Source of the DNA: Psammoneis japonica
Taxonomy: Eukaryota
Length of the DNA: 64,000 nucleotides
Assembly (NCBI GenBank): GCA_008632985.1
Contig: QPGO01000020.1
Span: 62,001 to 126,000 of the forward strand
Direction: 5' to 3'
The position numbers and the translations under genes were made by a program. Positions within the stretch are counted from its first letter, which is position 1. Every line of letters begins with the position of its first letter. Below are positions 5,452 through 64,000 of the stretch, piece by piece. The notes beneath the pieces are model-generated. The model made no database searches. It worked only from the letters and a program-made list of their open reading frames with translations, and was not told the origin of the DNA.

Positions 5452-5553
5452 CCATTCGAAACCATAAGCTGTACCTACTTTAGTAACAAGATGGCATATT
5501 TTTCTTTGCAGAATTCCTTTTTTTTCGTTGAACGTGGAATCATCATTGTTCTC

Positions 5554-6359
5554 TCACACCTCGAGATCCAGCAAGCGTATTACAGTTCCGAGGCTGTCGT
5601 GTGCTCTCTCTACGTTTTTCCTCGACCGCTCCAGGAACAGCGCAACCCGGTCCTTTCCGCCACCTGGATTGGCTTCTCCCCAACTCGAAACATACGCCAC
5701 GCCATTCGCTTCGTCCGCCTGCTCCACCCACTTGTCGAAGGCTTCTCCATATTCAAAGTCCTTGTCGGCGGACACTAGATCTCGCAATCTGAGCAAGGTC
5801 TTGTCAGCTCGAAACAATGGATCAGCCGTACTCTTGTATCCCATGTACTGATCACAAGAAGAGTGACAACGAATGTGAAAAAGCCATCCGAAGCTGTAAT
5901 TCAAGGCGGTCGCGTCAGAAAAACCAACAAGGCATCAGCATCGACCAACATACCTCCATAACTTTCTCGGGGGTTCGCTGTGACAACGAATGTGAAAAAA
6001 GCCGTCAGAAGTCAGAAGCTGTAAGACAAGGCAGCGCGTCAGAAAAAACAACGAAGACATCATACCTCACAGCCCGAGTCGAAAGCCTGGCCTTTAGTGC
6101 ATGAGGTGGTTTCATCTTCCCAATTCTTCAATAAATAGTCAAGTCGTTGGTAGCCCTTGACAATGTTCGCTTTGTCTATATCTTCCTGAGAAGATTTTGC
6201 TTGCGCTGGAACAGAATTCGTCGAAAAAAAAACACAAGAAACGACTGATCCACTAGCCAGCCTCAAGAAATCTCTTCGAGCAGCAGCTGTTGAACCAGAT
6301 GCTAAAGCAGATGATAGGACAACTGGCGCCAGCAAAATCGTCAACCGAAACAACACCAT
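5554..6359 (-). CDS. Plastid, probably thylakoid-lumen, protein. Three exons: 6359-6066, 5977-5954 (24-nt microexon RTPEKVME), 5847-5554; ~203 aa
   Basis: Signal peptide, twin-arginine RRDFL and AQA cleavage-like site. Two phase-0 GTATG...CAG introns (6065-5978, 5953-5848) join the ORF pieces in frame: ...SGCE-RTPEKVME-YMGYKS... Confidence 0.85.
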
Positions 6360-6574
6360 GGTGACGACGGGAGACCGGAGGGTGTGCGGAGTTCAGATTT
6401 GGATCGGGTCACTCCCGGCTTGGAGGTCTGTAGGATCGGGTGAGAGGGCACGTCGACCGCACCGCGCGCGCTTCGCACACCCCTCACGAGAATGGAAGAG
6501 GCGGATTTTGCACCGAAGATGACAGACGGAAAATCAAAAAATGGGATGCGCGGATTTTTTTCCTACCGTGCTTC

Positions 6575-6738
6575 TGCAGTGACTCACTCGCACGCTTCTG
6601 ACACATAATGTTAATTTTGGACATTAGATTAACGTAGCCGTTTGAGAGGGCTCGCCAGCGCTCGCTGACGCTTAGGCTCTCCCTCTCTTCGGTCTGCTCA
6701 CTTCCTTGTTTTGACACCAACCTCAGCTTGAGCTTGCA
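6575..6738 (+). repeat. 5' LTR of Gypsy element
   Basis: Direct repeat of 11829-11992, with 13 differences in my manual alignment, all transitions. Confidence 0.95.
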
Positions 6739-6972
6739 CTGCAGTTGCAGTCGATTGTAAAGAGCTGAATGAGAAACAACGATGCAACTGACAGGCTTGC
6801 GAAACAAGAGAAAAGAACTTTGAGAGCGAAGGCAGTGAACTGGGCTTTGGAACAAAAATGAGAAAAGGAGATACGAAAACAACGCGAACAGAATGTTTGG
6901 CGATTCGAGTGGCACAACTCGAGTCGAAGGTGGAGCACTTGAAACAGTTCCTTGGTGGACCAACTTGGCCTG

Positions 6973-9900
6973 ATGAGTGATCGCGAGAGCCTCAAGGAAC
7001 CGTGCATCTTGCATGCTGCGAAATTTGCCCATTCGGATTTGGAACTCGCAAAACTGACCCAATCGTATGATGATGGTGGCACGCGCACAAAAAAGTGCCC
7101 TTGTTTTGATGGAAGCAATGGGATTGAAGCGTTGTTGTTTGTGGAAGACCGTTTTCGTAAACTGGCTGCAAAACTTGAGTTCACTGCAGGAGAAGAATTG
7201 TTTGATGATTTTGAAGAAGTGTTGACAGACACAGCCGAAGACAAATGGTCCGCGCAGAAGATGGCAGCTCGTTTTGACCAAGAGTTGGCTCGTTTTTGTT
7301 TGTCGCATTGTGAAACTGAAGCTCGTGACACGATGATTGAATGCTTGCTTGCTCTCAAAAAGCCGTGTGACGTTGAAGTGCAGGCACACGCAGATCGAAT
7401 GGAAACTTTGGCACAACACACAAACAAGTTGCCGGGAAATGATCCAGTTGTCACTCAGAACCAGAAGAAGAAGATGATTTTTGACAGCTTCCCTCTGTCG
7501 TGGCGCGAGATGCACACAAGAGCAGGACGCACGATTGGAAATGACACACTGGCGGAGATTGTCACGTGTGTGAGCATGGAGAAATTGTTTGCGGATGGGA
7601 ACAAGAAGACGTCAAAAAAGCGCAAAGATGGACAGTCTAAAGGTGGCTCCAATGAGAAGAAAGGCAACCACATTGACCCAGAAACCCAATGTCCATTGCA
7701 CACTCACAATCACAAGTGGAAAGATTGCATCATGAATCCCGACTCCAACAACTGCCATCCAAGAACTGATCGTGGCGGTCGCGGGTGTGGTGGCCATGGT
7801 GGTTGAGGTGGCAGTCGCAGTGGAGGTCGTGGTCATGGCAGAAATCAAGGTCGTGGTTGGCAAGGCCGTGGCTGTCAAGGTCGTGGCAGTGGCCGAGGAA
7901 ATTGTGGCGGTCAAGGAAACTGCAACTCTGGTGGCAATGGCGGCGAGCATCATGAAGATGGTGGCTCCCACGTGCAATGTCAAAACGACACCCGAGCCAA
8001 TGCAGATGGCGGCGGTCATGGTGATCCGGCCAGAATGGCTCCTCCTGATGATTGGTCTGCTGAAAGCCATCATCTTGATTCGATGGGAGGGCCTCGTGAG
8101 TGTCGAGGTGGAGCAGGAAGTTTTCGACCTGGTGGTCGCTTCTCGGGACGCCATCGACACTGACCCAATGAGCTTGAAGAGCTGCAGTCCGAGTGTGTCG
8201 CTCATGATTCCCACATGTTTGATGATTGCACTGATTGCACTGATGATTGTCACGCACATGCTGCTGATTTGTTTGATGATGACGATTTCAAAAATTGCAC
8301 TGTGAATGACGAAGACGATGTGGGACTTGAGCACGCTGCACCAACCCCAAAAACAAAACCAACCAAACCTTTGAACGTGGTCCCTGCAACCTCATTCGCA
8401 GCGCGATTTGTGCAAGACAAGGAAAGCAAGCGCGTGATGCGGGTGTTGCTCGACTCTGGTGGAACCCATTCAATGATTCATGCTCGGGTGTTGCCAATTG
8501 GAGCAGTGCCAGCATTGGAGGAAACAGGGCCAATTGTTGTGAAGTTTTGGACGTCAGCGGGAGAATTCAAATCTGCTCGTTACGTTCGACTGCGGGACAT
8601 GGTGCTCCCTGAATTTGACAAGACAAAACGCATTGATGGCATGCATGCACATGTGTTTGACTCACCTTGCCAGCATGACATGATCCTTGGACAGGACTTC
8701 TTGGCGAGAGCAGGTGTCACGTTAGATTTTGAACACGGGATTGTCAAGTGGCTTGATTCAAGCATTGCAATGAAGCCAAGAAACCATCGGATTGGCATCC
8801 AGCAGTGGCTTGACGACTTGACTGATGAGCCAGCTGACGATGATGATGTGTGGGACAGCTGCATCCTCGATGCAAAGCATGAGGAAACGTCCCCTTCTGA
8901 AGCAGCGTCGGCTCAGAAGCACCTCACTGCCAAACAACAAGAAAAATTACGCCTTGTGTTGGAAAAACACACCACTCTTTTTGATGGCACTCTCGGCAAG
9001 CATGCTGGCAAAAAAGTTCACCTTGACATTGATCCTGACGCTGTTCCTTGCCATTCTCGAGCGCATGCAGTGCCGCACAATGATCTCGAGACTTTCAAAC
9101 GAGAACTGGATCATTTGGTGATTCTTGGCGTTCTTGAAGAGGCCGGAACAACGGAATGGGCTGCTGGCACTTTTGTTTGGCCAAAGAAGGATGGTCGAGT
9201 GCGGTGGCTCAGCGATTTTTGGGAACTCAACAAAGCCCTCAAGCACAAGGTTTGCCCTTTGCCGATCATTCAAGATGTGCTGCAGAAGAGAGCCGGGCGC
9301 AAGTTTTTGACTAAATTGGACCTCTCAATGATGCACCATGCACTCGAATTGGATGACGATTCCAAGGACTTGATGACAATCGTGACACCCTTTGGAAAGT
9401 GCCGATGCTGCCGTTCAGCAATGGGTCTGAAGCCGGCTCCAGACATTGTGCAATGTTCAATTGAGAAAACTGTGCACGACTTGGACGTTGACGCGTGTGT
9501 TGATGATCTTGCTCAATTTGATGACGACTTTGACATTCACCTTGACCGTCTTGACAAACTTTTACAACGCCTGGAGGAAGCTGGATTCAAAGTAAATCCC
9601 TTGAAATGCGAATGGTGTGTGCAGGAAACGGATTTCCTTGGGCATTGGCTGACTCCGACTGGAATTCGTCCGTGGAAGAAAAAGGTGGAGGCTGTCCTGC
9701 GGATGCAACCTCCGGAAAACATCAAGCAGCTTCGTTCGTTCCTTGGTGCTGTGACGCATTGTCGCAGTGTGTGGCCTCGGCGTTCTCACCTGTTGAAACC
9801 CTTGACAGATCTCACAGGCAAAGGCTCATGGACATGGACAGCGGAATGTCAGGCGGCATTCGATGAGATGAAAGCAGTCCCAGCGGCTGAAACATTGATG

Positions 9901-11706
9901 GCACACCCGAATCACAACAAACCCTTCCACATCTGCACCGATGCAAGTGATTGCCAGATGGGTGCAGTGATTGTGCAGGATGGAAAGCCCACTGCACACT
10001 GGTCTCGAAAGCTCAATGCGGCGCAACAAAACTGTTCGACAATCGAAAAAGAACTGCCAGCCATTGTCATGTGCTTCCGAGAATGCCGAACAATGCTCCT
10101 TGGCGGCGACTTGCATGCATTCACTGACCACAAGAACCTTGCCTTTCGCACCTTGAATTCACAGCGCGCACTTCGTTGGCGACTCTTTCTGGAAGACTTT
10201 GCCCCTCAATTTCATTGCATTGAAGGCCGATTGAATGTCTTGGCTGATTGTTTTTCTCGTTTGCCTCGCATGGATCCTCCCTCTGAAGGGAAGAGCTTGG
10301 CTCCGGGCAAAGGAACTGTTGTCGATTTTGCCCCGCTCAATTCGAAGTTGGTGCCGAGTGAGGAACCATCCGAAGTCGAGGATTTCCACGATGAGGACTT
10401 GGAGCTCGGCGCATGCCGATTCAAGTGTTGTCGCAACATTGAAAATGAAGGCCACTCACACTTCTTCTCTTTCTTTGTGGATGAGCCGGAACTGTTCGAT
10501 TCCTTCTTGAATTGCCCTGCTGTGCAGGAGATGCAGAATCCAATGACGTTGCAACACATTCAGGAGCATCAGTTCGAGGACCAACAGTTGAACCAGATGC
10601 GCATTGCTCACCCTGATCATTTCCTCGTGGAATGTGTGAATGATCGACCGCTTGCATGTTGTCGTGCGCGACCGAATGATCCTCCAGGACAGTGGAAAAT
10701 CTGTTTGCCGACTGCGCTTGTGCCCGACATCTTACGGTGGTGTCATCTCGTCCTTGGCCATGCCGGAAGCCAGCGCATGCGTGAGATGATCCAGGCTCAT
10801 TGTCATCATCCTGGGTTGTGTTGCATGTGTGATGAATGCTCTTGTGCTGATTGTCAACGTAACAAAACATTGGGTCCTGGCTGTGGAGAGTTGCCCGAGC
10901 AAGAAGCTGCATTAACTCCCTGGTCGGAAGTGGCGGTTGATCTCATTGGCCCATGGAAAATCAAAGCACCAGATGGAGAGATTGAGTTTCGGGCATTGAC
11001 CTGTGTTGATCCTGTCTCTGATCTTGTTGAGCTGGTGAGAATTGAAAATAAAACTGCCCGACATGTTGCCAACCAATTTGAAAACTGCTGGCTTGCACGC
11101 TGTCCCAGACCGAATCGATGCATCCACGATGACGGTGGCGAGTTCACCGGGTGCGATTTTCAGATGCTGTTGCAACGAGCCGGAATTGATGATGTGCTGA
11201 CTGCTTCGTACAATCCTCAAGCCAACGCCATTTGCGAACAAATGCACCAGACCGTCGGCAATGTGTTGCGAACGCTCATTGCTTCCAATCCACCTCAAAA
11301 TCTTCAAGATGCAGCCAGCCTCGTGGACGATGCTTTGGCAACTGCAATGCATGCAACTCGCTGTGCTGTTTCCCATTCTTTGCAGATTTCACCAGGTGCC
11401 ATGGTGTTCAGACGTGACATGATCCTAGACATCCCTGTGCTGGCAGACTCATTGACGATCCAAGGCCATCGCCAGACGCTGATCAACAATGATTTGCAAA
11501 GAGCTGATGCCAAGAGAAGATCCTGCGATTGTCAAGTGGGTGATCAAGTTCCAATCAAGTCGGTTAACCCGTCCAGCCTCGAGCCTCGTGCTCATGGCCC
11601 TCATCCTGTTGTTCAAGTGCATGTGAATGGCATGCTTTTGCTTCGTCGAGCTCCTCATGTGGTTGAGCGCCTCAACATTCGGCGCCTGATTCCTTTTCGT
11701 GGTTGA
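6973..11706 (+). pseudogene. Gypsy gag-pol in a single frame, with two in-frame TGA stops (7804-7806, 8161-8163)
   Basis: ORF pieces 6952-7806, 7972-8163 and 8215-11706 share one frame. Motifs: CPLH..HKW..C (gag), LLDSGG (protease), LDLS and ACVDD (RT, from YxDD), CTDASDCQ (RNase H, from YTDASDY), H..GH...C..C and VDLIGP (integrase). Confidence 0.93.
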
Positions 11707-11828
11707 TCAGGGGGGTTTCTTCCCAACACCTGGGTTTCCTCCTGCCGTTGTGATTTCTTTGGGTTTTGGCAACTGGTTTTGGCCCTTTGCATGATCCTCC
11801 AGTTCTTTTGGATCATGGAAGGGAAGAG

Positions 11829-11992
11829 TGCAGTGACTCACTCGCACGCTTCTGACACACAGCACCAATTTTGGACATTGGATTAATGCAGCCATTTGAG
11901 AGGGCTCGCCAGCGCTCGCTGATGCTTGGGCTCTCCCTCTCTTCGGTCTGCTCACTTCCTTGTTTTGACATCAACCTCAGCTTGAGCTTGCA
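11829..11992 (+). repeat. 3' LTR of Gypsy element
   Basis: Follows the PPT and is followed by TSD GCTTC. Confidence 0.95.
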
Positions 11993-12018
11993 GCTTCTCC
12001 CGTGCAATTCAACACTTG

Positions 12019-15000
12019 CAGCTTTCCCTGCAATCAAACAAAACGCCGCAGAATTTGTGTGGGACACACCAGCTTTTTGTGACATGTCCGCTTTGACGTC
12101 ATCGCAACAATCTTGAAGCACGAGAAAAAGCATGAGACAATGGCGCTGGTGGAATCGGCTTTTTTGTGGTTTTGCTGCTGAGTCCTCTCTGATCCCCCTG
12201 CACAGCTTGACAGCAAACACCCGTCAAAATGTCACAAGGCAATGCAATCAGAGCGTCTCGGTCGACACCGACTGGCATCATCACTTTGCATTTCAGGGAT
12301 GCATGCAAGATGCCGAAGTTCCAGTGCAGATGGATCAAGGCGAACTGTTTTGTGCATGTGACAAAAGAGGCCTGTGCAATTGACAAAGATTTGAACTTCA
12401 ATGCCAAGAAGTTGAACAGTGCATTGAGTGGAGTTGGATCTCCATTTCCAGAAATTGACAAGGACACGTCTGAGAACGATGGCGGGGTTTTCCGAAAGCA
12501 GTTCCGACCGAAGGGAGAGCCGTCTGTTGTGGCACACTGTGCCTGCAAAGAGCAAGAATTGCCAAGGTGTGTGCCCTCAACAATCAATGATCTCAGGTGT
12601 GTGATGTTGACTGTTGAAGAGTGCAACAAGAAAGTAGAAACTCGAGCCGGCTCCAGCAAGAGAACAGCGGGGTACGACGCAAACGAGTGCGCACAGACGT
12701 TGCAGGAAACAAGCAAAGAAAAAGAAAAGGAAAGAACCACTAGAGTCCTCTGCAACAGAGGAGAAATCATCCAATGATGGTGGTGCTGATGAAGACAACA
12801 CTCCTGAGAATGATGCCACGCCTGCCAATGATTTGACCGCTGTTGTTGGCATCTTCTGGGATGACACGACCGTGCGGAACCTGTTCAATGCAGATGATGG
12901 AGAGGATGCAAAAAAGACAATTGAGAAACAGACAGATAAATTGACTTCTGGATTTGCTTTTCATGATGGATGGAAAGAAGTGATCAAAGGAGGTGACCCT
13001 GACAACCTGTGCACACCCAACGACGCTCATGTGTGATTCGATTGAGATGCCAGCATCTTGCGATCGCGCTTGACCATGCGTTGAAGAAGCTGCCAAAAAG
13101 GAACACTGCATGGCTTGACTGCTGTCAGCATGCAATCGATGACCTCAGCGGTGCAGGTGTTAACTTTATGAAAAGTTGCCAAACCGCAGCTGCTTGGCAT
13201 CGCATCTTTAGGAATCTCAGTTCCTTTCCTCATCCCCGACCAAAAGGAAAAGGAGACCCACCGACATTTGAAGCACATCCAAAGATGAAGCGGAAATTCA
13301 TTGAGTTTGTGACAGCAAACCTTTCTCGACTTTCTGCTGAGGTGGCCACAGACCACTTCCACGAAGTGCTTGTCCCGGAATTCTTAAAGAGAGAGAACAA
13401 TGACCATCGCAAGAACGGGGAAGACATCTTGTAGTCAGAACGGGAGTTCCTGAATCAGCATGGATTGCTCACCGGGGAAAACCAACCATGCATTTCTTCC
13501 AATGCAGTTTCCAACTGGATGAATCTATTTGGTTTCTGGCATGGGCCAAACAAAAAGATGCACCATGTTGACAATCATGAATGTCCCGACAATGTGAGGT
13601 GTCGGAATGCGATGGTCCGTCGATGCTTGATGATGGAAGAACGATGCCCACGTTGGATGCAACTTCCAAAAGCCACTGCCATGGACCTTGTCAAAGCTGA
13701 AGCTCTCCCAGCAAAAATGGGGCATGAATGCCAAGTCGATGGAGAAGATTTTGTCGAGCATCATGTCAACACTGTCATCGACCCGGAGCATCCAAGCCTT
13801 GTGCCCAAGCTGTCCGTGCAATTTGGAGGAAGTGAAAGTGTGAGAAAGGATCCGAATGTAAAGCCTGTCATGACATTTGGACAGGACGAGGCCATTTTTA
13901 AGCAACACTTGCTAAGCACAAGCAGCTGGTCGGGTCCCAAAGGTGAGTGGCCGCTGCTGCCCAAAGATGATGGAGAAGGCGTGATGCAGTCTGTGTTTCA
14001 ATGTCGAGAGGTCGGCCTCATTCAAGATGGAGACATTTCGGAAGAGCAACTCCAAGAGACAAATGAAACTCGAGCAGGCAAACACTGCACTGATGAAGAT
14101 GCTGCAGAAACAGCATTCAGCAAGAAGCAGCACAAGCCGAAGTTGAAGAAAAGTCCATTCATCCGCGAGTTCAAGCATGGAGCAAACAGCGACAGACACT
14201 GGAATTGTGACCACATGTTGGTGCAATTGGAGGATTGCGTGGATTGCTTGAAAGTGCTGCATCCTCAATTTGACTGTCATTTCCTTTTTGATCATTCTTG
14301 CGGGCACGACAAGCAGAGAGCAGACGGACCAATCTGCAACAAGCGCACGATGAATGCAGGAGTCGGCAGCAGTCAGAACAAGATGCACCCCACTGAGATT
14401 CTTCAGGCAGAGGGCTTTCTAGGTCCTCATGCTGAAGCAGTTGGCATGTTGTCTGCAGGACAAGTGCAAACAATGGCATTCAGTGAGGAAGACCAGGGAC
14501 CATGCTGGATGATGCCGGAAGAACGAGAAGCTGAGAAATGTGACGCACCTGTCGAGGGTCAAACTGAAACTCGGAAGTTCCTGCGTGATGAAATTTTTGA
14601 CAAGCTTCTACAAAAGAACATCAAGAACATCAGGGGCAAGAAAAAGGATGAATTGATTGACACAGCAAAGAGCAACAACATGCCTGTCAAAGAAACCATT
14701 CAAAAGGTGAAGCACGGATGGGTCAACAAGCCGAAAGGATCAAAGCAAATTTTGCATGAGCAAGGATGGATTGATCCCAATGACCCTGGAAAATGCACTG
14801 TGGATGGCACAAAGGGCAAAGATGGAGAGATCGACAAGTCAACATCTCTTCTTCACTTGATGGCCACTTGCGATGATTTCGTCAACGAAGAGACGTTGTT
14901 GCAAACCATGGGTCGCAAAATGGGTGTGACCATTGACAGAACGCCAAAGTGTCACCCACAATGGCTGGGGAGGGCATTGAATGTTCTTGGGGACTCGCAA

Positions 15001-15464
15001 AGCAGCATTGTTGTTTGCAACCTTTGTCAAGAAAGAGGGGAAAGCAAAACTTTAGAGAGTTGGCACGAGAATCAATGTCATCAAGCGCACTCACGACTGA
15101 CAGGATGCAAAAGTTCTCGCGACGAGCACGACGATGCATTTGTGCTTGCATGGTTCTTTCACAACCTGATGTGTCTCAAGAGGTTCAGCATGAAGCCTTG
15201 TCTCTTGAGACCATTGAAAAGCTTGTCAAAGAGTTCAAAACGCACCGCAGTGCCACTGATTTTGACAAGGGTTTCATTGTGAGGACGCTTTTCGCAGGGT
15301 GAAAAGATGTTTTTTTTGCAGGCAAATAAAAAACTTTAGAATGTGGACAAGTTTTATGTGCAACGCTGCTGGCGATTTTACTTTGGCTTTTTGCATGAAA
15401 AACAAATTTTCCCACCAGTGGCGTGGGATCAATGCGACGTTTGGGTTGGTTGCAGGGAAAGCTG
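12019..15464 (+). mobile_element. Tc1/mariner(ITm)-like TIR DNA transposon, degenerate
   Basis: ~32-bp TIRs: cagctttccctgcaatcaaacaaaacgccgca (12019-12050) and the reverse complement of 15433-15464, with 4 mismatches. Flanks read TG and CA where a TA TSD is expected. Contains a DDE transposase remnant. Confidence 0.85.
12229..15302 (+). pseudogene. DDE transposase pseudogene with stops and frameshifts
   Basis: Motifs FGQDEAIF, PLLPKDDGEG, FLFDHSCGH and TPKCHP/AGEGIECSWG (frameshift near 14960). Tyr positions are replaced by Cys/His. Confidence 0.8.
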
Positions 15465-18400
15465 CAATGGCGAATGACAATCAGACATTGCAAAACCTCA
15501 AAGCACATGTGTCAAAGCTGTCTCCACATGAGCAAGGTTCTGGGAAAGCATTTTGGTGTCAACAAGTGCTCTCGAGCACCACTCGCCATTCAGGCGGGAA
15601 ATCGTGGCACTGGTTTGATGCAGAAACTGCGCAGAAAGGAAGGAATGTTGTGGAACTCAATGAACAGACCAACCTGACAAATCAGTGTTTAGAACTTGTC
15701 TTTTGCACCTGAAGAGCACATGACATGTTTGGATGACTTGCTCACATTGTTTCGGGGGGCGGCAGGAGAGACATTGGCTGAATTGCATGTGGCTTGGGGG
15801 GGGAATCTTTTGCACGCACCCCATTTCATCTGGCCATCTTCCACATGGAATGGGTCAATTGTCAAGAAACAAATGACCTCACACTTGACTTTACATCATG
15901 TGAATGTGTTCAGTCATGAGGACATTGCAGACACCTTGCAATGGCCCCCTGTCGATTGACCCAGTCTGCAGCAATTTGAGATGATTGCAAAATTTTCAGA
16001 GCCCCTCGTCCTTTGAGCATTGAAAGTGATTTGTCCAGTGCTCTGTGCAAATGGAGAATTGCTCCACTGCACACTCACAATTTGAGAATTTGTTTCTTTG
16101 CAACAACTGAGCTCTTCATCAGCCCAAAAGCTTGGCGGACGTCATCAGGAGATGACTCTGACAGCACACGCTTCCTCTGTGCTGAGTGAGACAAAAGAGA
16201 CAACCAGCCACAATGTCATTTTCTCTAAAACCTGCTCAGGCCATCACAGGCATTTTTGACTTTGTGGAGAAAAGCTCACAAAGCCATCTGCAACAAGGCA
16301 GTTGAGAAGCTCAAGGAGAGTGGCCTTGGCTGCACACAGCAGGAGAAACTGCTTCAGCTCCTCAAGACCCTTAGCGATGGAGCTGCCAAGAATGGATGGA
16401 ACAAAGCTGATGGAATGTTGATGATTCCTGATGATCCAGTGGACATCATGTCTGATGTCACCAATTTGTTGACACACTGTGTTCAAATCAAGGCGGAGCT
16501 CATGTCTTTGTTTGTGAGCACATTTGCATTGATCAAATGGCAAGGCCAGCACACGATGCAAGGATGCTGTGCCACCTGCTCATGATTGCACTTTCTGAAG
16601 AAGAAAAGACTGGAATTGTGGTCTGGGAAAAGCAATGCAAAATTCTCAAGAATGACAAGATGAGTCTGTTGGGAAACATTCTGTTGAAGGTGACAATCCA
16701 AGAAAGACACCAATGGAGCTGCAATGAGCATCAGGAGGATGAAAAACTTGGCAATGTTGACAAGTGCATTGACCCAGCATTGAGCAATGTTGCCAAATTC
16801 ACTCAATGCATGCTGCTCTTGGCACCTGATGCAAGCTCTCAAGTCCCATGATGAGACAACAGAAGGTCATCCAATTGAACTTGTTTGAAGGATGCACTGC
16901 AGTGTCCGACAAGACATTTGTTGATTGCATCCATTGCAAGCACAATGAGTGTGATGAAGGACATGACATGGACCCCCAATGAACTTGCAAACCTCATTGT
17001 CAATGAGTGCAAGAAGATGGTTGAGAGGGAGGAATGGAGTGCATCATCCCTTGAGGAGGAAAAGATTCTGGCTCTAGAAGTGAAGGTTGATGTCCTTAAA
17101 CCATCTCAAGGCAAAAAGACCAATCCAAAAATGAGGGAAATCCAAAGAGTCAGAAGAAAGGAGAGAAGAAGACGCATGGACCCAAGCCTGCTTGGTTGGA
17201 GAAGGACAAAAGACACACAAACAATCAACTTCACAAGCCCCAGCATTGGAGCAACAAGCCATGACACTGTTGTTGTCACAAGGACACATGCGGAAAGTGT
17301 GGTGGAAAGTGGTGGATCCATGAACCACGCATGTGAAGGAAAAGCCTTCCTTGCTTGGAAACCATGCGGTGCAAAAAGTCCTTCAGAGAAAAACAATCAG
17401 TCAACATCAACCAAGAAAGTCCAAAAGGACCTCAAGTCACTCAAGCTGTCAGAAGCACTCACTGCTCTTGCAGACAAGATTGAGACCTCAGATGAAGAAT
17501 GGCTGGTGGCAGAGCAAGGCAACGAGCCCAACTGTGATTGGGAAAATCATGGCATTGCAGTCTGCATGATGTCCTTTGCAACATGGTGCACAACTGCAAT
17601 TTGCAGCTCTCTGCTGCTGCTGTTGCTGCCACCAATGCAATTCATGTAGATGGCTGTGTCCTGCAATTGGATCTCCATCACAGTCTGGGGAAAAAATTGC
17701 CAAGAGATGCAACCGCAAATGCTGCTCCAAACAAATTTGTTGCTGGAGCTCACACATCACTGGCAATTGCTGTTTTCTGTCTCATTGTTTTTGTTGGCAA
17801 GGACCCCAACAATCCCAATCTGTGCTTCATTTCACAGTTGCAGTGTTGGAGGAAATGCTGAAGATTGATGCAGCAGGCCCAGTGAAGCATGCAATGGACA
17901 GAAAACAGACTGGTTGATTTGTTGTTTGTTGAAAGTGGGGTCAATTGACTGTCCACAGTCAAGCAATCCCAAACGGGGCAAGAGTCAGGCAAGTTCAAGA
18001 GTCACTGAGCAAGATCAACAACGAGCATCAAAGAAGGCATTCAACACAAATGACAGCAGCACTGGCCATCCTGGCAGTGTGCATGATGGCCCAGAATGAT
18101 GCCCTCAAGTGAGACAAAACATGACTCAATTTGACACAGATTCAGGGCCTGCAGGCATGGACAACTGATGATGCAGGGGATGTGTGTCCAGTGCAGCCAC
18201 AGACTTTGCAAGTGAGCTTGTTCTAAGCATTGAGCCACAAAAGGATTCAGAGGGTCAAGAACAATGGAAGTCATGATGGGCACATTGACAATGGTGCAAT
18301 GACAACAGGGCTGCTCACTTGTTGTTTAAAACCCCAAACTTGCACTGTGCACCCAATGGCAAAGTCCGCCTGTTGAGTCCCCAGCACATCTGTGACATGT

Positions 18401-20379
18401 TTCCATGCTTGACAAGAGCACAACTTGTCAATGATTGAAATTTGTCACATGCATGCTGATTGCATCCACAGATCTTCCCAACACACACAATTGTCAATTT
18501 TGTTTCTTTGCAGTTGTCAAGTCACAACAAATGAATCTTTTTTGCTCATTTTAAGCCACCTGTGTGGCTCATTCTGTCCACATTGTAAACACTTGTTAAG
18601 AACAGTTTCATTTGTTTTTTCCTTCCATTTGTTGTCAGATCTCTGCCTTTGTTTAAAATGCCTGTGTGGCTCACATGAGTGTTTTCTCTGTGTGCAGCAG
18701 TTTGCTGGTTCAGTCTGTTGTGGCAAAGGAAAGTGAGCATGGCAACATGTTTCTAAAAGGCACTCGAGTGATGTGTTTCCCATCACAAAAACATCAAACC
18801 AAACATGAAGATTGTGGAGGCCACAATGCTTCTCATCACTGCATTTCCAGCTGGCTTGCAAGGTGTGTGGATGAATCCTCACATTGCACATGAGGCACCA
18901 CAGTGTGGTGGCTTTTCCAGGACTTCATAAGTCCAGAATCTTGTCTGGCCTCTGAGGTGCCTCAAATTGAAAAAATTTGGTGTCAGTCCCTCCCATGCAC
19001 AGGCAACTGCTGCAAGGGATTTGGGAAGTGCTGCCGTGCTGTTGCTTGGTCAGTTGAAAAATCCAGCACAGCTGCTGTGAAGCACAGGAGTCCAAAGTGT
19101 TTGCTTTTTAAGGATGTGATGATTTCCAGAGCATTTTCATTCAATGATGATCAGAAAAAATCAATCTGAGAAAACACAATGTGATGAGCATGTTGGGCAT
19201 TTTGCCACATGGGAGTTGCTCAAGAAGCAACGACCTTTCAAGACATCAACACAATGCTTTGCAGAGCATTTCTTTTAAAACAAACCCAGAATCAAGAGTT
19301 TTAGAATAAAAACCTGGAACACTCCAGAGCTGTGGCAAATGCTCTTTCATGCCAACAAGAAACAGCAGTGCTTCTAGTCACAGCACAGTTGCCCCAGCTC
19401 TGACCATTTTTGCACTGCTCCTTGCCCTTGCCATTCTCTGGTGGGCAGGCATTGCGAATGTCCAAAAAGGATTCTTTGGTTTCCGTTGCCTCTGGCAATG
19501 CATGTGTGGCATTTGTTTGACACCACCAATCCATGCAAGACACCGTTTGTGGTTCTTTCCACATTCAAAACTTCTCCATCAACAAAGGGACAGCCGCAAG
19601 GGCATTCCATGTCTCCCGCTTGTGCCTCTTCCTTCATTTCTTTCATCATTTTGGTGCCCATGGCAGAGGCATTTGTTGTGTTGCTTCTTGGCAATGGCAA
19701 CATTAATTTGAGACACACAATTCTTGTCACAACAAAAATGCTTCTGCTGTCGATCCTTTTGATCAAACCTTTTGATCAAACCTCACCAACAAAATCTTTG
19801 CATCTCATGAATCAAGCAATGGCTCTGCTGCTTGGAAAGCCACTGCCAGATGACAGAGACTGGGAAGATTGTTTCATTTTCTTCCCTGTCACCACTGCAA
19901 ATGAAGACAATGGCCAGAGTTCACGAGCCACACACCCTCAGTTCCAAGGGGTTCATTCTGGTGTTGAGTTTGATGACATGTCTTGGCATCTCCAATTTGA
20001 GCAACAGGCTTGCCAGGTGGATGGTGCATGATGCACAGGTCAAAGCCAATTGAGAAGCAAAAATGGAGCATGTGGTGGTGTCCCCATGTCCCAGCACACA
20101 TTTGCCAAATGCCAAGCCAGATCATCATCATCGCTGCAAATGCACATTGGTTTGAGTTGCGGCCTGCATGACACGCACCCCAGATGCACTCAATCTGCAT
20201 TTGTTGAGCAGGTTGGCCCAATTGTGGTGTCTTTGCACTCTTGATTTGGGAAGCTGCAATCCTTCTTGTCTTGGTGGGCAGCAGCAGCCCTGTCACACGA
20301 TTCCTTCACAAACAAGAAGATGCCCGGCTGCACAAAGTGTGGAAGCATGAGGCCCACAGATGTGGCAAAGGAGGTGTGC

Positions 20380-21600
20380 AGCCATCTTGAGATGGCATTG
20401 GAGGACTCCAGTGGGTTGCCAGGGACATGCCAACAACCATGGTTGGGGAGCAAATGCCTTGTCTTGTGTCAATGCAGCACCTTGTCTCTCTGACATGACT
20501 GGCTTTGGCCCAGCCAGCCAACCTGCAGAAAGAAGAAAACCATCTGTGTGACAGGGCAAGTGCTCCATTGTCTTGGGATGGCATTGGATGACTCCATTGG
20601 GTCCCTGAAGATGCAACAACAACAAAGGTTGCAAAGCAAAGGCCTTGTCTTTTGTCAATGCAGCACCCAGTCTCTTTGACATGACTGGGCTGTTTGGCCC
20701 AGCCACCCCACCTGCAAGGACAAGAAAACCATCTGTGTGACAGTGCAAGTGCTCCGTTGTCTTGGGATGGCATTGGATGACTCTGTTGGTTCCCAGAGGA
20801 TGCAATGACAACTGTGGTTGGGAAGCAAAGGCCTTGTCTTGTGGCAACACAGCACACTGTCTCTCTGAGGCTGACATGACTGTGTTCTTTTGCCCAGCAA
20901 CCCCACCCACAGAGAGACAAGAAAACCATCTGTGTGACAGTGCAAGTGCTCTGTTGTCTTCTTGGGATGGCTTTTGGCAACTCCATTGGATCCCAGAGGA
21001 GCTAACAACAACCATGGTTGGGAAGCAAATGTCTTGTCTTGTGTCAATGCAGCACATTGTGTCTCTGACATGATTGGGTTTGGCCCAGCCAGCCTGCCCG
21101 CCCACCCACAGAGGTGAGAAAACCATCTGTGCAACAGCACAAGTGCTCAGTTGTCTTGAGATGGCTTTTGGTGACTCCATTGGATCCCAGAGCAGCCAGC
21201 AACAACAATGGTTGGGAAGAAAAGGCCTTGTCTTGTGTCAGCGCAGGACCTTGTCTCTCTAACATGACTGGGCTTGGCCCAGCCATCCCACCCACAGAGA
21301 CAAATCTGTGCAACAGTGCAAGTGCTCAGTTGTCTTGGGATGGCTTGGTGACTCCATTGGATCCCAGAGGATCCAACAACAACAATGGTTGGGAAGAAAA
21401 GGCCTTGTCTTGTTGGGAAGGAAAAGCCTGGTCTTGGGCCAATGCAGCCTTTTTTCTGTCTGACATGATTGGCTTGCTTTGGCCCAGCCACCTTTCCCAA
21501 AGAGACAAGAGAGCTTTCTGTGCTGTGTGACAGTGCAAGTGCCCAGTTGTCTTTGGATGGCCTTGGGTGCCTCCATTGTGACCCAGGGGAGCCAACAACA
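20380..21600. repeat. Tandem array of ~190-bp units, ~6 copies
   Basis: Motif aaaaccatctgtg(tg/ca)acag..caagtgct recurs at ~20537, 20726, 20922, 21120, 21302 and 21520. Confidence 0.85.
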
Positions 21601-24600
21601 GCTGGGGCCGGGAGTCAGTGAATGGAAATTCATGGTGTTCCCTGTCTCTTGTTTGGATGGAAAGCCAAGAGAGAGCAGAACAGCAAGACCCACTGTCAAT
21701 TGCTCACTTTCTTTACAAGGTGGGTCTCCAAAGTTGTCATTTTGCTGGCATGAAGGGTCTGTTTCTGAGCTTTCTGGAGAGAGGCAATTGTCTTGTTGGC
21801 AGCAGCAATTTTTGAACACACCAAATGGCAAAAAGGTGTTGATTGAGGTCCCAGAGCTGGGAGTGGGAGTGTGCAGGCAGAAGTGTGAATTTCCAATCTC
21901 AACAAGAACACTTTGGTGTGATGAAGTCAAACCTGTTGAATGCATGCCTGATGTCAATGAACAAATGATTCATCAAGGCTCACAGTTTGGCCAAAAACAT
22001 GAATTGTCCCTCCCTCACAAGACACCAAAAATGCAAACTCAAGTCACAAGCATTGCATGAAAATGAGAGCGGCAGTGACAGGCAGTGGCATTGCAGATGG
22101 GACAGAATGGAATGCAGGACACAAGATGAGAAAGAGAAAACAAGTGGCAAATGCACAGAGATTGGGTGCACAATGCAAACAACTGACACTTGCACACATC
22201 TTTGCACACAGACATCTGGACAGTGACCTGAGATGCAAAGGAAGACGGCAACCGGGAAGGGCACAAAGGTGAGCAAAAGCAGCACATGAGACAAGATTGT
22301 GGGAAACGCAAGACATGTGTAAAAACTGATCATTGGCACAAAGTTTTCTCCAGTTGCATGCAACATTTTGGCCAATCAAACAGAAGGAACAACCATCAAA
22401 CCAAATTGGAAGGTTCTGGTGATTGTTGCACACCCTTTGTTGACAATTGTCAAGAACTTGTTGTGAACACAGGATTCTGAACAAGAGAGTGTGAATTCTG
22501 AACAAGAGCAAATGTGTTTTCCAGATGCATTGTGGGCAAAGACACAAAAGGTCTGCAAGCTGGCTGAAGGTGCAGGGGGAAGCATGGGTTGCAAGCAGTG
22601 CACACTGCACCGGAGTCAAAAGAGAAATAAACTCACTCTTCTCCTGAGTCCAGAGACCAATGTGGCAATGTTCAACCTTGCTCCTGGTTGCCAGAAGTTT
22701 GAGGCCTTCCATGATGAATGTGGAATCAACAACACTGCTGAAAACAATGATCCTGTTGAAGCAAACAAAGCAAACATTGTGAGCAACAAATGGGAGGAAG
22801 AAGACAAGGAAATCCAATGACTCAGGGTTGGTCAGATGCACCTGGACCTTGAACCCAATGAAGGCTGTGTTGCACCATGCAAAGCATGACAAGCATGCCT
22901 CAGGGTTCTTGGAGAGCAATGCTTCAGTTGCTGCTCCACTCAATTTGGATGGACCACCTGAGGGCATGAGTGAAACAAGTTCACTCTAAGTTGTGACAGA
23001 TGAGGAAGGTTGGCAGAAAAAAATGCATCACCACAATTGTTGAGACTTCACCAAAAATGTGGGAACATCTCATTCCTGAAACTGCAAGAAATGGTGGAGC
23101 AGGGAGTCATCCCAAAGCATTTGGCAAAACACAATGCACCTGCATGCTCCTCCTCATGCATGTTTGCAAAAGCAACCAAGCACAAGTGGCAAATTCTGCA
23201 ACAAGAAGGAACACAATTCACAGAAGCCAACATGACCGGGTCAAGTGATTTCAGCAGATCAGACAGTGTCGCTGACTCCGGGGCTGACTGTGCGCCAGAT
23301 GGCGGGGTTCTGACAACCAAGCTGAGATGCAAGTGCGCAACAGCATGTGTTGATCAACACTCCCACTTCAACCATGCGCACCTGCAAAAGACAGCAAGCA
23401 TGGAAGAGATGTCAGAAGGAAAGAAAGCCTTTGAGCTCATGGCAATGAATTGCTGGGTCAAGGCACCAACTTGCCATGCAGACAATGGGGCATCTAAGGT
23501 GAGGCAATGGATGCAAGCATGTTGTGACCAAGGACAAGGATTGCACATGCAGGCATCAATGCACACCACATGAATGGCTTTGCAGAGCACTGCATGTGCA
23601 AGCTGCAGGAACATGATGCATGAAGTGTGCTCATGCGTGCAAATGGATGATGGCCTTCAAGCAAAAACACAGCCAACTTGTGACCACATGCTGTCCAAAA
23701 AGCAAACAATGCAATCAATGAAACATCCAGCTTCCAGAATCCTGGGTGCAAGACTCCTCTGACTCAGTTGCAAATGCAAACAGACATCTTGAGCAACCCC
23801 AAATCATGTGCCAGACAACCAGCTCCAAACAAACTGCCCATTTCACAAGTGGAGGCAATGATCAAGGGTTGGAACATGCTTGAGGGTGAGTCCAATGTGT
23901 GTGGCAGCCATGCGGACAAGCCCAGTGCATGGCAGGAATGTTGCCTTGGCGCCAAACAGAGCAACAGTGCACACAAGTCCCCAGCTCCATGTGCAATGTG
24001 ACCCCAGCTCCCAGCTTCCATGTGACAAAACAGGACAAGTTTGACTCAACATGGCAAATGAAAGCCAGAACTGTGAGTCAGAGGGAGGTCAACAAACCAG
24101 CCAAAGGCAAGAACAAGATGCTGCTCATGCTTGAAGCTGCCAACAAGCAGAGCATTTGTCAGCAAAAAGAGGTGGCTGATGCCTCCTTCAGAAAGAGCAT
24201 CAAAGAGGATGAGGTTCAAGAATGTGACAAACCATTTGCAAGATTTTTACAAAACACTGGGGTCACCTAAAGCCAGCAAGCAAGTTGTCAATGCTGCAGC
24301 AGCTGGGTTGCCTCTGGCACAGCCAGAATCTCCAGAAGGGACCTTGGCAGCAGGTGGGTGAGTCTGATCTGCCCAGAGTGCCAAGGACATCAGAGACAAA
24401 CACAAGATCAGGGCAACAGAGCTGGTCAGTTGAGCAGCCAGCACTGGCAATGACAGCTGAACTTGGCACAGATGCAGATGGGAACATTGAGAGAGAGACA
24501 TCTTCACTGACAGCTGCTTCACCACACAATGAATCACACCCATCTCAAATGATGCCAACCCTCTTCCAGAACACAAAGTTTCAAAACAGACCCTGATGTG

Positions 24601-25529
24601 CCAGGCACACATGCACAAAGCAATGAAACAACAAGATTGCAAGGAATTCATCAAGGTGATGTGCAAAAAGGTCAAGGATCAAATGGGATCAAACAAAGAA
24701 TGGAAACTTTGCCACAGTTCCAAGATCAATGGCGGCTGACAAAAGAAAGATGCTTCCAGCTGCATGGCAGATGAAACAAAAATGGGATGTCCTGAGGGAC
24801 ATCCTGACCAGTGCTGTCAAGAAATGGAAGGCAAGATTGAATGCAGACAGATCAAAAATGAGAGAAGGGGTCAATCACAGCAAAACATGTGCTCCATTGG
24901 CATCCTGGAACTCAGCACACATGCTGCTTGCCATGGCAGCAGTGCACAATTGGCGCGCTGAGCACAACTGGATTGTGTCTTGGCTTTTAAAAACAGGCTC
25001 CTGCAGAGCATCAGATTTGCATGCAGACTCCAAAAGGATTTGAAGTCGACAAAGGAAATTTGAAGAACTTTGCACTGCACCTGAGTGAGAATCTTTCAAG
25101 ACCACAGAAACAAGCTGGACAAGCATGGAGCAAGTGCCTGGACCTTGGTGGGCAGAAACAAGCCAGACGAGCATGTGTGGAACAAGCACCTGTTCAACGA
25201 GTTTGCAAAGGAGCTGAGCTTTGCACAGCCCAAGTTCCAGCATGAGTGTGCACTCTGCCAAGGCAACACAGAGCACTTGCCATGTGCTGATGACAGCTTG
25301 TTGGCAGGGCCCAAAATGACAAAGAGAGATTTGGCGACAAAAGCTGAGCTCTGGAAATTGCAAAGACCCACAAGTGCCTTCCAAGAACCAAAAACTTGAA
25401 CGCACAGCTGCACCACTTCAGAGACTGTGTGTCCAGGGGAGAAATTTCCATCCATCCTGTATCCTGTCTGTGCAAAGGAGCAAGTCGCCGATGAAAGTCT
25501 TGACTTGACTTCTGACAGGCTGAAACACA

Positions 25530-25813
25530 TATGAAATGTATTCAGTCATGAGGACATCATACGGACATAAAGAAATGGCCCCCGTCGATTGATCCAATCG
25601 ACTGTAATTCGAAACGAGTACACGAAATGATCAGAATCCCTCCTTAGAGCGTTGAAAGTGTTCTGTTCAACGCTCTGTGCAAATAATGGAGAATACTCCA
25701 CTACACTCAAAATTTGTGAATTTACTTCACTGTAACAACTAAACTCTTTATCAGTCCAAATACTTGGTGAACGTCGCCAGGAGATTCGACGGACAGTAGT
25801 TAGGTATTCTAAC
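25530..25813 (+). repeat. Copia LTR-like segment that retains TpA
   Basis: Similar to 15895-16165 (ttcagtcatgaggacat, aatggcccc.gtcgattga, ttgaaagtg, ctctgtgcaaat). Ends ...ttctaaca. Confidence 0.6.
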
Positions 25814-26048
25814 ACACGATACATCGCGGAACGCATCGGTCGGTCGGCCGAACCCGTCCTTCCTTCGCTTGCGGTAGGCATCCATCTACCGGTAAATCAA
25901 CCTCTTTTCTCAAGTTTCGTCCGCCAAAGCTGGTTCTAAAAATAATGAAATCACTCTAACATAGGTATTTGGATGATTCTACGTATAAGATAATAAGGTA
26001 GTCCAAATCGAACAAAAATGAATGCGGTAGGAAGAACGACACCAGGAC

Positions 26049-27548
26049 TCATGTGCTTTCTTCTTCCTTCTGTTGCAGTCGCCTTCGTTTTTGTCTTGCA
26101 CGGTTTCGTGCTTTTGACTTTGTCTTCTTTGCTCTTGCCTTTGCCGTTTTTACAGAAGCTCGGCTTTGGCTTCCGTTCAAGAATTCGTCTAGCTTGTATC
26201 TCAATCGCTTCCGGGCGATATTTCGATTTTGAGACAGAGATCGTGTTTCTTGACACTCCACGCGGAGTTGAGTTGGCTTGTGCAACAGAACAACGCGGTT
26301 AGCTGTTTTGTTGATTTTCTGTCCACCCGCACCAGAGCCCCGGACAAAAGATTCTTCCAACTCACTTTCCTGGAGCATCGGTAGCTCTCCTTTCTTGGCA
26401 CCGCCACTGCTGCTGCTTCTTTCGAGTCGATTCATTTCCAGAGCAATCTCTTCCACAATCGACTGACGCAACGAGGAGTCTGGAAGCAGAGCAACCAACT
26501 CCGAAAACACATCTAATGCCAACAAATCCGTTGTTGGTACGAGGGATGGTTCCGGACACGAAATGGGATCCTGTCGCGCGTCGCGAAACAGTTGGAGAAC
26601 ACCTTTAACATACGACTCTAGCCGATGCTTTGAGACCAGACCTATAGCATTGTCGTTATCGACAGCCTCTTTCTGTAAATTTGATGATGCTTGTTTCAGA
26701 GAGAGAAATCGGTCTTGACCTAACGCTAACTGTATTTCTGATGACACCTGAGCTTGCCGTTGCCGATTCCATTCTAGGATACGATCACGCTCTTGCTTCC
26801 ACTCGTCATAAGTCTTGACAACGTCTTGAATTGTCTGACCTCCATTGTTCCTTCCGAAGACTCTGTCAATGCGACGGCTGCGATCCCATACAATGCGTTC
26901 TCGGTACCGGATTGCCACAATACGGTGCTCTGGCAATGCCATGACAAACATAGTTTGAGACCCAGCAACTGATTTGTTGGGCAAGTCCATTGGTGCTTCC
27001 ATGACCTTGTCATCTACTCGATCATAATAGAGAATAACAAAATCTTCTTCCGACAAATGTGGATCATATTGGATGCGTCGCAACACCTCCGCTGCCGGAA
27101 CTAGTTTGTCTCGCGCCCCGCCTGTGGTTGAAGCTTCGCTTTCCGCTGTTCCTTTGCTGTCGCTAAACAGGCGTTCATACGCTGGACTATTCACATCATT
27201 TAGCTTTTCCAAGCGACGTTCTACACCCCCGAGTCCACGTCCCAAGAGACAAGATAGTTCTGGCAAGCTGTCCTCTCGGTGCTCCCACAAAAGGCGATCT
27301 TGCTCGATCGTCCATTCTCGATACACATTCTCCATCGGTTCGGGGTTGCTTGATGCTGTGATTGTGGCGAATAAGCGAGATGACGAAATGCCTTGAACCG
27401 ATGATTTGGAATATTGAAGAAAGGATGCATGCGGAGAATGGCTAGTGAGAGCCAATCGTGTGACTCGCCTTCCACCAAACCCCATCGTTCTACACACTAG
27501 TGTCATCATCATGGTCGTGACAACTAGAAACAACCACGCATTTGTCAT
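26049..27548 (-). CDS. Organelle-targeted protein fusing an MJ1316-like domain with a class I release-factor GGQ peptidyl-tRNA hydrolase domain (C12orf65/ArfB-like), 499 aa
   Basis: N-terminal signal peptide and Ser-rich transit-like region. EVLRRIQYDP...YYDRV...LPEHRI...IVWDR (MJ1316-like). FVRGSGAGGQKINKT...CQETRSL..NR plus a basic tail (RF-1 domain). Confidence 0.85.
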   Translation of the reverse strand: MTNAWLFLVVTTMMMTLVCRTMGFGGRRVTRLALTSHSPHASFLQYSKSSVQGISSSRLFATITASSNPEPMENVYREWTIEQDRLLWEHREDSLPELSCLLGRGLGGVERRLEKLNDVNSPAYERLFSDSKGTAESEASTTGGARDKLVPAAEVLRRIQYDPHLSEEDFVILYYDRVDDKVMEAPMDLPNKSVAGSQTMFVMALPEHRIVAIRYRERIVWDRSRRIDRVFGRNNGGQTIQDVVKTYDEWKQERDRILEWNRQRQAQVSSEIQLALGQDRFLSLKQASSNLQKEAVDNDNAIGLVSKHRLESYVKGVLQLFRDARQDPISCPEPSLVPTTDLLALDVFSELVALLPDSSLRQSIVEEIALEMNRLERSSSSGGAKKGELPMLQESELEESFVRGSGAGGQKINKTANRVVLLHKPTQLRVECQETRSLSQNRNIARKRLRYKLDEFLNGSQSRASVKTAKARAKKTKSKARNRARQKRRRLQQKEEEST

Positions 27549-63999: not shown

Positions 64000-64000
64000 G

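Follow-up and report, generated by a model that had tools for sequence, protein, structure and literature searches.

Here, we describe a 64,000-nucleotide stretch of DNA from the diatom Psammoneis japonica (assembly GCA_008632985.1, contig QPGO01000020.1, positions 62,001 to 126,000 of the forward strand), which was analysed at its full length and is called the window throughout. Four blocks of the window, best explained as transposon and satellite DNA in the diatom nuclear genome, have lost nearly all of their TpA dinucleotides and are rich in TpG and CpA, and the genes between them are spared. The loss is mutational, occurs at the level of DNA, is specific to TpA and symmetric between the strands, and is limited to domains; hypermutation of the elements in place is very probably how it came about. 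A preliminary description of the window, made from its letters, had reported such a signature in transposable element (TE) and repeat blocks but not in genes and had ascribed it to an A:T to G:C mutator aimed at TpA.

Extent and limits of the TpA-poor blocks

The ratio of observed to expected TA (TA o/e) was mapped per kilobase, and the block limits were taken from a two-state segmentation of the 64-kb window. Four TA-poor blocks alternate with four normal segments, and the edges between them are sharp to ~100 bp:

1..4180: low-TA block 1, TA o/e 0.07, CG o/e 0.11, extending past the window start
4181..6673: spared segment, TA o/e 0.56, its right end ~100 bp within the 5' long terminal repeat (LTR) of a Gypsy element
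6674..25529: low-TA block 2, TA o/e 0.06, CG o/e 0.41 overall
25530..41141: normal segment
41142..45708: low-TA block 3, TA o/e 0.03, CG o/e 0.19, in which no recognisable domains were found
45709..47017, forward strand: spared island of 1.3 kb, TA o/e 0.57, flanked by blocks 3 and 4
47018..56867: low-TA block 4, TA o/e 0.03, CG o/e 0.25
56868..64000: normal segment

Together the blocks make up 37,453 of the 64,000 bases, with TA o/e of 0.03–0.07 and TG and CA o/e of 1.6–1.9; in the normal segments TA o/e is 0.56–0.64, i.e., TA is mildly under-represented even in host DNA. The host segments have 39.3 TA per kb and the blocks 3.2, a 12-fold depletion accompanied by enrichment of CpA and TpG. 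The per-kilobase scan gives TA o/e of 0.00–0.14 across most of 1–4, 7–25, 42–45 and 47–56 kb, with TG and CA o/e of 1.3–2.3 in these TA-poor stretches, and TA o/e of 0.35–0.87 in the gene-bearing ones. Between 6575 and 25400 there are 76 TA where ~1250 are expected from base composition, and the minimum of 200 shuffles was 1183. The four dinucleotides TA, CG, TG and CA add up to nearly the same share of all dinucleotides in the blocks (0.244) and in the host segments (0.240), and such a constant sum is what the conversion of TA and CG into TG and CA via transitions would predict. The manual counts of the preliminary description (1 TA in 8401–8700 and 13 in 4681–4980) proved exact, its block coordinates agree with the segmentation to ~100–150 bp, and its division into TE/repeat blocks with the signature and spared genes is the one that the segmentation returns.

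Loss of tyrosine codons and direction of the substitutions

The protein-level evidence comes from a complete Gypsy retrotransposon and from a second TE-type open reading frame (ORF) downstream of it:

6575..11992, forward strand: complete Gypsy LTR retrotransposon, with LTRs, target-site duplication and polypurine tract
6575..6738 and 11829..11992: the two Gypsy LTRs, 164 bp, with TG..CA ends
6943..7806, forward strand: Gag-like ORF, in the frame shared with pol, 1 Tyr in 287 residues
8164..11706, forward strand: Gypsy pol ORF, 1180 codons open, with protease, reverse transcriptase (RT), RNase H and integrase
13435..15282, forward strand: second TE-type ORF, 615 amino acids (aa), 0 Tyr

The target-site duplication of the Gypsy element is perfect (5 bp, GCTTC), the polypurine tract precedes the 3' LTR, and the rve match reaches 22.8 bits, under the cut-off of 32.6. 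Between gag and pol, positions 7807–8160 form a 118-codon Gly/Arg-rich stretch with GGRG and GRGxG repeats, bounded by in-frame TGA codons at 7804 and 8161, for which an original gag stop and a CpG-decayed CGA are both possible origins.

Gypsy pol has 2 Tyr among its 1180 residues (0.2%), next to 51 Cys (4.3%) and 58 His (4.9%), and Tyr makes up 2.6–4.6% in all 120 pol homologues listed. Conserved Tyr columns were taken as those in which at least 70% of 40 pol homologues have Tyr (n = 23). All 23 are lost in the window, 12 to TGY (Cys), 9 to CAY (His) and 2 to CGY (Arg; Y stands for a pyrimidine); conserved His is kept at 14 of 14 columns and conserved Trp at 15 of 15, and the RT active-site motif YVDD now reads CVDD. 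Over 526 conserved columns pol shows 87 changes, 69 of which are single-step. With the strands collapsed, A>G accounts for 39.3 of these 69, and 38.3 of the 39.3 have a 5' T; the next-largest class is C>T (11.8 of 69, 10.5 of them at CpG), and the remainder is scattered. The Asn>Asp changes (4/4) and the Ile>Val changes (4/4) are all preceded by a codon ending in T, so the TpA context rule spans codon borders. In the second TE ORF Tyr is absent from all 615 residues, whereas 34 homologues have 4.2%; its 19 conserved Tyr columns have become 7 His, 6 Cys and 6 other, and 16 of the 23 A>G changes in this more diverged sequence are at TpA.

The stop codons follow the same rule. In the Gypsy coding frame the only stops are 6 TGA, whereas the two remaining frames have 55 and 116 stops, and across the blocks TGA occurs 936 times against 95 for TAA plus TAG. 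Under the genetic code a change of TA to TG or CA yields no stop and deletes TAA and TAG, hence inactivation proceeds by missense and the frames stay open.

The preliminary description had seen Tyr replaced by Cys and His, had taken the presence of A>G and T>C on one strand as a sign of double-stranded DNA, and had held that the TEs were destroyed; the near absence of Tyr from both ORFs, the 12 TGY beside 9 CAY codons and the ruined proteins, catalytic motif included, bear this out. Neither natively TA-free relatives with Cys or His at these sites nor a lack of TpA-context excess, two of the three outcomes that it had set against its own reading, was found, as relatives of both TEs have normal Tyr and the A>G changes of pol are nearly all at TpA. 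TA o/e in 78 metagenomic Gypsy relatives is 0.45–1.08, against 0.07 in the window Gypsy, and no Tyr- or TA-depleted relative was found among the 120 listed proteins or the 78 loci, with one of the two DNA patterns requiring YY and thus able to miss depleted copies, so that this negative does not amount to evidence of absence. The two closest metagenomic relatives (L001 and L004), at TA o/e 0.47 and 0.45, are the poorest in TA among the 78 and have raised TG (1.31 and 1.40); this might be native to them or might stem from a mild hypermutation in some other organism.

CpG loss in the same blocks

CpG is depleted as well, with CG o/e of 0.11–0.41 in the blocks and 0.87–1.07 outside, and its level is uneven within block 2 (0.5–0.83 at 7–15 kb, 0.05–0.18 at 16–25 kb). 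The preliminary description was right about the TpA loss and overlooked this concurrent and variable CpG loss. Within these blocks CpG decay runs beside the TpA loss as a second and slower process. The Gypsy element stands at TA o/e 0.07 and CG o/e 0.77, and in pol 23 of 23 conserved Tyr codons are gone, while CpG-type changes have hit 6 of 37 conserved Arg. A CpG depletion restricted to the blocks would fit CpG methylation of silent diatom TEs. As a cause of the TpA loss itself CpG decay was tried and rejected, given the changes of TAY to TGY and CAY and the Gypsy element in which TpA is nearly gone and CpG mostly remains.

Comparison of paired copies

The two Gypsy LTRs differ at 13 of 164 sites, by transitions throughout. 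At five of these sites the 5' LTR has TA where the 3' LTR has TG or CA, at three CG stands opposite TG or CA, two make up a TG/CA double, and the other three fall in none of these classes. The 5' LTR, which lies at the block edge, keeps all of its 6 TA and 9 CpG; the 3' LTR, inside the block, keeps 1 TA (in a TTAA common to both LTRs) and 6 CpG. Because the members of an LTR pair are identical at integration, and these now differ as TA against TG or CA, the mutation took place in DNA and after insertion. A 7-bp cluster (sites 6608/6611 against 11862/11865) carries A/G and T/C transitions that are not at present-day TpA. These non-TpA transitions and the two TAY>CGY codons of pol hint that sites in CpA/TpG context are, at a low rate, hit a second time.

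Two further pairs of copies allow the same kind of comparison:

15903..16153, forward strand: 250-bp repeat, inside copy, within block 2
25535..25785, forward strand: 250-bp repeat, outside copy, just beyond block 2, with TA and CpG retained
47816..49768, forward strand: 2-kb duplicate, copy 1, block 4
52313..54318, forward strand: 2-kb duplicate, copy 2, block 4

The 13 TA of the outside 250-bp copy correspond to 7 TG, 5 CA and 1 CG in the inside copy, and its 10 CG to 4 TG, 4 CA and 2 CG; in the reverse direction the count is 0 for TA and 0 for CG. The same sequences have thus met a different fate according to position, which makes a chromatin domain a more likely address than homology, and we note that these tests of homology targeting use short sequences at block edges and are weak evidence. 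The mutator of the preliminary description accordingly survives as a TpA-specific process confined to TE/repeat blocks, and its repeat-targeting is not supported: the LTR twins keep 6 and 1 TA and the outside 250-bp copy is unmutated, which points to a domain or chromatin address. The 2-kb duplicates show 71 differences over 1907 aligned bases, 8 of which are CA/TG doubles.

Copies elsewhere were sampled through a public run (run X1), whose contigs match the unique parts of the window with 0–3 differing letters per piece. Summed depth over the Gypsy element is ~1400–2500 against ~65–80 for unique DNA, so that the element belongs to a many-copy family. Among the inter-copy differences, 270 places are transitions and 40 involve transversions. 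The 40 best-supported of the 310 differences amount to 32 events when adjacent sites are merged, and 23 of these 32 interconvert TA, CG, TG and CA, 7 of the 23 being TG/CA doubles. One contig of run X1 joins 6535 to 15685, omitting 9149 bases (the Gypsy element and the second TE ORF) with 21 letters on the shorter side; this join may mark a haplotype with an empty site, or repeats may have been joined by chance.

Strand symmetry and neighbouring bases

Across the blocks TG and CA are balanced (4008 and 4179). Their over-dispersion (chi2/df) is 1.5–2.7 in the blocks and 1.9–2.2 in host DNA, i.e., the scatter is not above that of the host, and the blocks give no sign of long processive one-strand tracts. 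The TA that survive are not a random sample: 98 of 120 lie in TAA or TTA, where the TE baseline has 9590 of 22027 (odds ratio 5.8, p 2e-17), and host DNA, used as baseline instead, gives the same context order. All 10 contexts are fitted by a model in which the 3' neighbour alone determines the rate on each strand (likelihood-ratio statistic 132.7, 3 df), and the rates of this model fall in the order T 2.95 > C 1.91 > G 1.22 > A 0.67, so that TAY is preferred over TAR (R, purine). Of ATAT none is left where ~190 are expected, and about a quarter of TTAA is kept.

Other contents of the window

The remaining recognised features of the blocks are as follows:

3031..3521: tandem array of 151/161-bp units, inside block 1
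20385..21413: 189-bp satellite array, 5.4 copies, inside block 2, with high summed depth in run X1
24660..25040, forward strand: Copia-type RVT_2 fragment, E 4.8e-6, below the Pfam cut-off

In a Pfam search of 169 other stop-to-stop ORFs (90 aa or longer, from within the blocks or next to them) this RVT_2 fragment was the sole TE-related match, and three further weak matches (E 0.003–0.007) look like chance. The second TE ORF belongs to a multi-copy family of ~1000-aa proteins from metagenomes and one diatom record; Pfam domains are absent from the family except for SAP in 4 of 21 members, a profile search of PDB gave no relative, and its proximity to DDE_3 transposase clusters (language-model score 0.86–0.89) is to be taken as a lead only. 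The three TE classes named in the preliminary description accordingly reduce to one clear case, the Gypsy element; its Copia element is the sub-threshold RVT_2 fragment, and its Tc1/mariner-like element has the language-model lead only. The 189-bp satellite units, with 43 transition and 25 transversion columns and only 7 mixed Y-R columns, are too weak for use. Runs of N occur at 49520–49531 (12), 54584–54603 (20) and 32125 (1), the first two being assembly gaps in block 4. For 20001–30000 no RNA run was listed as carrying the sequence.

The normal segments carry host genes:

4663..5451, forward strand: TPR-repeat ORF, in the spared segment 4181..6673
26049..27554, reverse strand: ORF with an MJ1316 RNA cyclic-end recognition domain and a C-terminal RF-1 (peptidyl-tRNA hydrolase) domain
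33441..36701, reverse strand: ORF, 1086 aa
37011..38996, reverse strand: ORF, 661 aa
45902..46798, forward strand: ORF in the spared island, its start resembling a signal peptide
59988..61409: PIG-M mannosyltransferase

The PIG-M protein shares 42–56% identity with a set of proteins in which every named member comes from a diatom (Cylindrotheca, Seminavis, Nitzschia, Fistulifera and Pseudo-nitzschia). The ORFs at 33441–36701 and 37011–38996 have normal Tyr and no Pfam domain, and the latter holds a 282-bp tandem duplication (37310–37858, 89% matches). For the ORF of the spared island the nearest Atlas cluster consists of diatom hypothetical proteins (score 0.94, a lead only).

Proposed process and alternatives

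We propose that TE and satellite DNA integrated and was then hypermutated in place, TpA becoming TpG or CpA through an A:T to G:C transition on either strand of the palindromic TA step, and that this ran near to completion and stops within ~100 bp of the neighbouring genes. The lesion would be an enzymatic deamination of adenine to inosine in 5'-TA-3', faster at TAY than at TAR; the address would be a chromatin state, i.e., silent, CpG-methylated TE domains, rather than homology; and in the same domains a parallel and slower change of CpG to TpG or CpA would reflect 5-methylcytosine decay. The elements would be inactivated by missense with their frames open, Tyr codons being lost, including that for the Tyr of the RT YxDD motif. 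For this statement as a whole, enzymatic and domain-addressed adenine deamination at TpA in duplex DNA, the balance of the evidence is in our view favourable, though not strongly so.

The process would be of the same kind as one caught in mutation-accumulation lines of Bigelowiella natans (2026 bioRxiv preprint of Mettrop et al., 10.64898/2026.01.13.699255). According to the preprint, two integrated viral regions accounted for 231 of the 302 nuclear mutations, 230 of the 231 were A>G or T>C, and all 230 were at TpA, at ~6e-7 per site per generation and in some lines only (10.64898/2026.01.13.699255). It further reports clusters of 1-kb windows that are TpA-poor and CpA+TpG-rich, and TpA-depleted coding sequences enriched in RT and DDE domains; an ADAT2-like adenine deaminase is proposed, without a test (10.64898/2026.01.13.699255). 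The preliminary description had known of no described system of this kind; here is one, in which TpA to TpG/CpA hypermutation is seen to arise de novo. From the figures that the preprint gives, we obtain 211/(6169 TpA x 3132 generations), or ~1.1e-5 per TpA per generation, a rate that would remove 99% of TA in ~4e5 generations and that fits the all-or-none pattern in the window.

Several points weigh against our proposal and should be stated together. TpA is palindromic, so sequence alone does not tell whether A or T is the base attacked, and deamination and chromatin targeting are both deduced from sequence. The polarisation uses a protein consensus, with relatives that are 45–65% identical (~40% for the second TE), and takes in non-synonymous changes only; the context rates depend on proxy baselines (host DNA and metagenomic Gypsy DNA) and small counts; and TTAA is only partly spared, since the 5' LTR has two of them and the 3' LTR shows one of these converted. 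The LTR test is small, with only 13 sites. The 2-kb copies share most of their TG and CA and so were duplicated after most of the mutation, and the CA/TG doubles may also derive from ancestral CpG. Run X1 was used as Logan contigs, not as raw reads, and is possibly the assembly's own sample; it thus backs the sequence and is not independent proof.

The palindromic step leaves room, first of all, for a lesion on thymine, i.e., a TET/JBP-type oxidation or hypermodification at TpA (to 5-hydroxymethyluracil or a J-like base) that is read or repaired as C. In a palindromic TpA, a T>C change cannot be told from A>G on the opposite strand, and the balance of TG and CA is as this would have it. Base J in kinetoplastid telomeres sits on a T preceding A, and thymine-modifying TET/JBP enzymes are common among protists. 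Oxidised thymine opposite A, however, is only weakly mutagenic, and the window offers no sign of a modified T. The sole experimental precedent, moreover, proposes adenine deamination, there likewise as a suggestion ahead of any test (10.64898/2026.01.13.699255). We consider a thymine lesion unlikely, though it is the strongest of the alternatives.

Somewhat less probable again is a passive course, in which a general TpA lesion (an ultraviolet thymine-adenine photoadduct, or spontaneous damage at weakly stacked TA) is repaired only in transcribed or open chromatin. That the limits track gene and TE domains rather than sequence, and that the easily unstacked ATAT is lost most completely and TTAA least, would agree with it. 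Against this, ~92–94% of TA is lost although the LTRs differ at only 3 of 164 sites outside TA and CG steps and the Gypsy element retains CG o/e of 0.77; near-complete TA loss with few other LTR changes and CpG mostly kept places the loss of TpA far above any background process. The block edges, at ~100 bp, are also sharp for such a course, and the B. natans process, episodic between lines and ~1000-fold over background as the preprint describes it, fits a regulated activity (10.64898/2026.01.13.699255).

Mutation before integration, by ADAR-like A-to-I editing of double-stranded retrotransposon RNA or by deamination of cDNA, with the changes fixed on re-integration, would put the process on a different substrate. 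ADAR favours a 5' U, and the best-analysed element here is a retrotransposon. The 5' U preference is noted in the Discussion of the preprint as well (10.64898/2026.01.13.699255). However, the LTRs of one insertion, made from the same template, differ as TA against TG or CA; A>G and T>C are nearly equal on the coding strand (12 Cys against 9 His, TG 4008 against CA 4179); and the 189-bp satellite, the non-retroviral ORF and unclassified DNA are equally affected, with a block edge that crosses an LTR. We give this explanation very little chance.

Just as little can be said for a native lack of TA, for selection against the dinucleotide, for foreign DNA or for an artefact of sequencing or assembly, since relatives of both TEs have normal Tyr and TA, paralogues differ by position, the contigs of run X1 reproduce the unique parts almost letter by letter, and the loss of a catalytic Tyr means that no purifying selection is at work. 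GC-biased gene conversion, together with selection against TA, was ruled out on the grounds that the changes are context-exclusive and destroy catalytic residues.

Beyond the adenine deamination proposed here for the window, a wider and distinctly speculative reading may be offered, to which we assign less than even weight: diatoms and chlorarachniophytes might share, by common descent within the stramenopiles, alveolates and Rhizaria (SAR) or by convergence, a chromatin-addressed defence enzyme that edits A (or T) in duplex 5'-TAY-3' and so erases Tyr codons, TATA-type signals and TAA/TAG stops in silent chromatin within ~10^5–10^6 generations.

Implications

A saturated case in a diatom means that this type of mutation is peculiar neither to one species nor to integrated viruses, and diatoms are a group with transformation and gene-editing tools, in which the question is now reachable. 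Any mechanism must act on integrated duplex DNA, must be addressed by position (domain) and not by homology, with edges sharp to ~100 bp, and must show a rate that falls with the 3' neighbour from T through C and G to A. For annotation, hypermutated elements keep long ORFs and will be annotated as tyrosine-free, Cys/His-rich genes; profile searches are less sensitive on them, as the sub-threshold rve match of the Gypsy element illustrates; and dating by LTR divergence is inflated, because 10 of the 13 LTR differences are at TA or CG steps. If an enzyme indeed makes A:T to G:C changes in double-stranded DNA, it would be a natural double-stranded DNA editor of interest to base-editing research.

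Comparison with known systems

Like the process in the window, repeat-induced point mutation (RIP) of ascomycete fungi is a hypermutation by context-dependent transitions. Both disable repeats and TEs for good, and both leave the genome bimodal, with mutated blocks beside genes that stay intact. The chemistry is opposite, CpA to TpA in RIP and TpA to CpA or TpG in the window; RIP raises AT and makes stops, whereas the window process raises GC and makes none; and RIP depends on duplication and leaks into flanks, whereas the LTR twins of the window diverge and the element at the edge is left intact over its first ~100 bp. RIP itself is excluded by the 12-fold TpA depletion with CpA and TpG enrichment, since RIP gives a TpA excess. 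Methylated-CpG decay acts in the same blocks and gives the same products (CpG to TpG or CpA, CG o/e 0.11–0.41), but it leaves TpA intact and is slower and variable. APOBEC3 likewise hypermutates against retroelements; it converts C to U on minus-strand cDNA, with strand-asymmetric G>A, before integration and in retroelements only, and none of these features holds in the window.

The closest chemistry is that of TadA/ADAT2-ADAT3, ADAR and the engineered TadA base editors, which share the A to I to G outcome and a U or T directly 5' of the target. In the tRNA substrate of TadA and ADAT2-ADAT3, A34 follows the invariant U33. ADAR prefers a 3' G, unlike the TAY preference of the window, and the natural substrates of TadA/ADAT2-ADAT3 and ADAR are RNA. 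No gene for a polynucleotide adenosine deaminase lies within the 64-kb window.

A full-text literature search, with most subscription journals outside its coverage, returned the B. natans preprint as the one precedent and no report of TpA loss in diatom TEs, and the main text of the B. natans preprint makes no mention of diatoms, flanking bases, TTAA or an address by position and not homology, while its supplements may hold flanking-base data (10.64898/2026.01.13.699255). As far as the preprint describes it, the B. natans process is like that of the window in being nearly only A:T to G:C, at TpA only, on both strands and confined to non-host regions within a normal genome. The hosts differ, a diatom (stramenopile) here and a chlorarachniophyte (rhizarian) there, as do the targets, which are LTR elements, another TE ORF and satellites here and integrated giant-virus and virophage DNA there. 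CpG is also lost in the blocks of the window. The preprint has de novo mutation rates where the window has the end state only, and the hypermutable viral region, at Rho 0.45, is far from the saturation of the window, at TA o/e 0.03–0.07. In the window a second lineage would show this kind of process, carried to saturation and directed at transposons and satellites.

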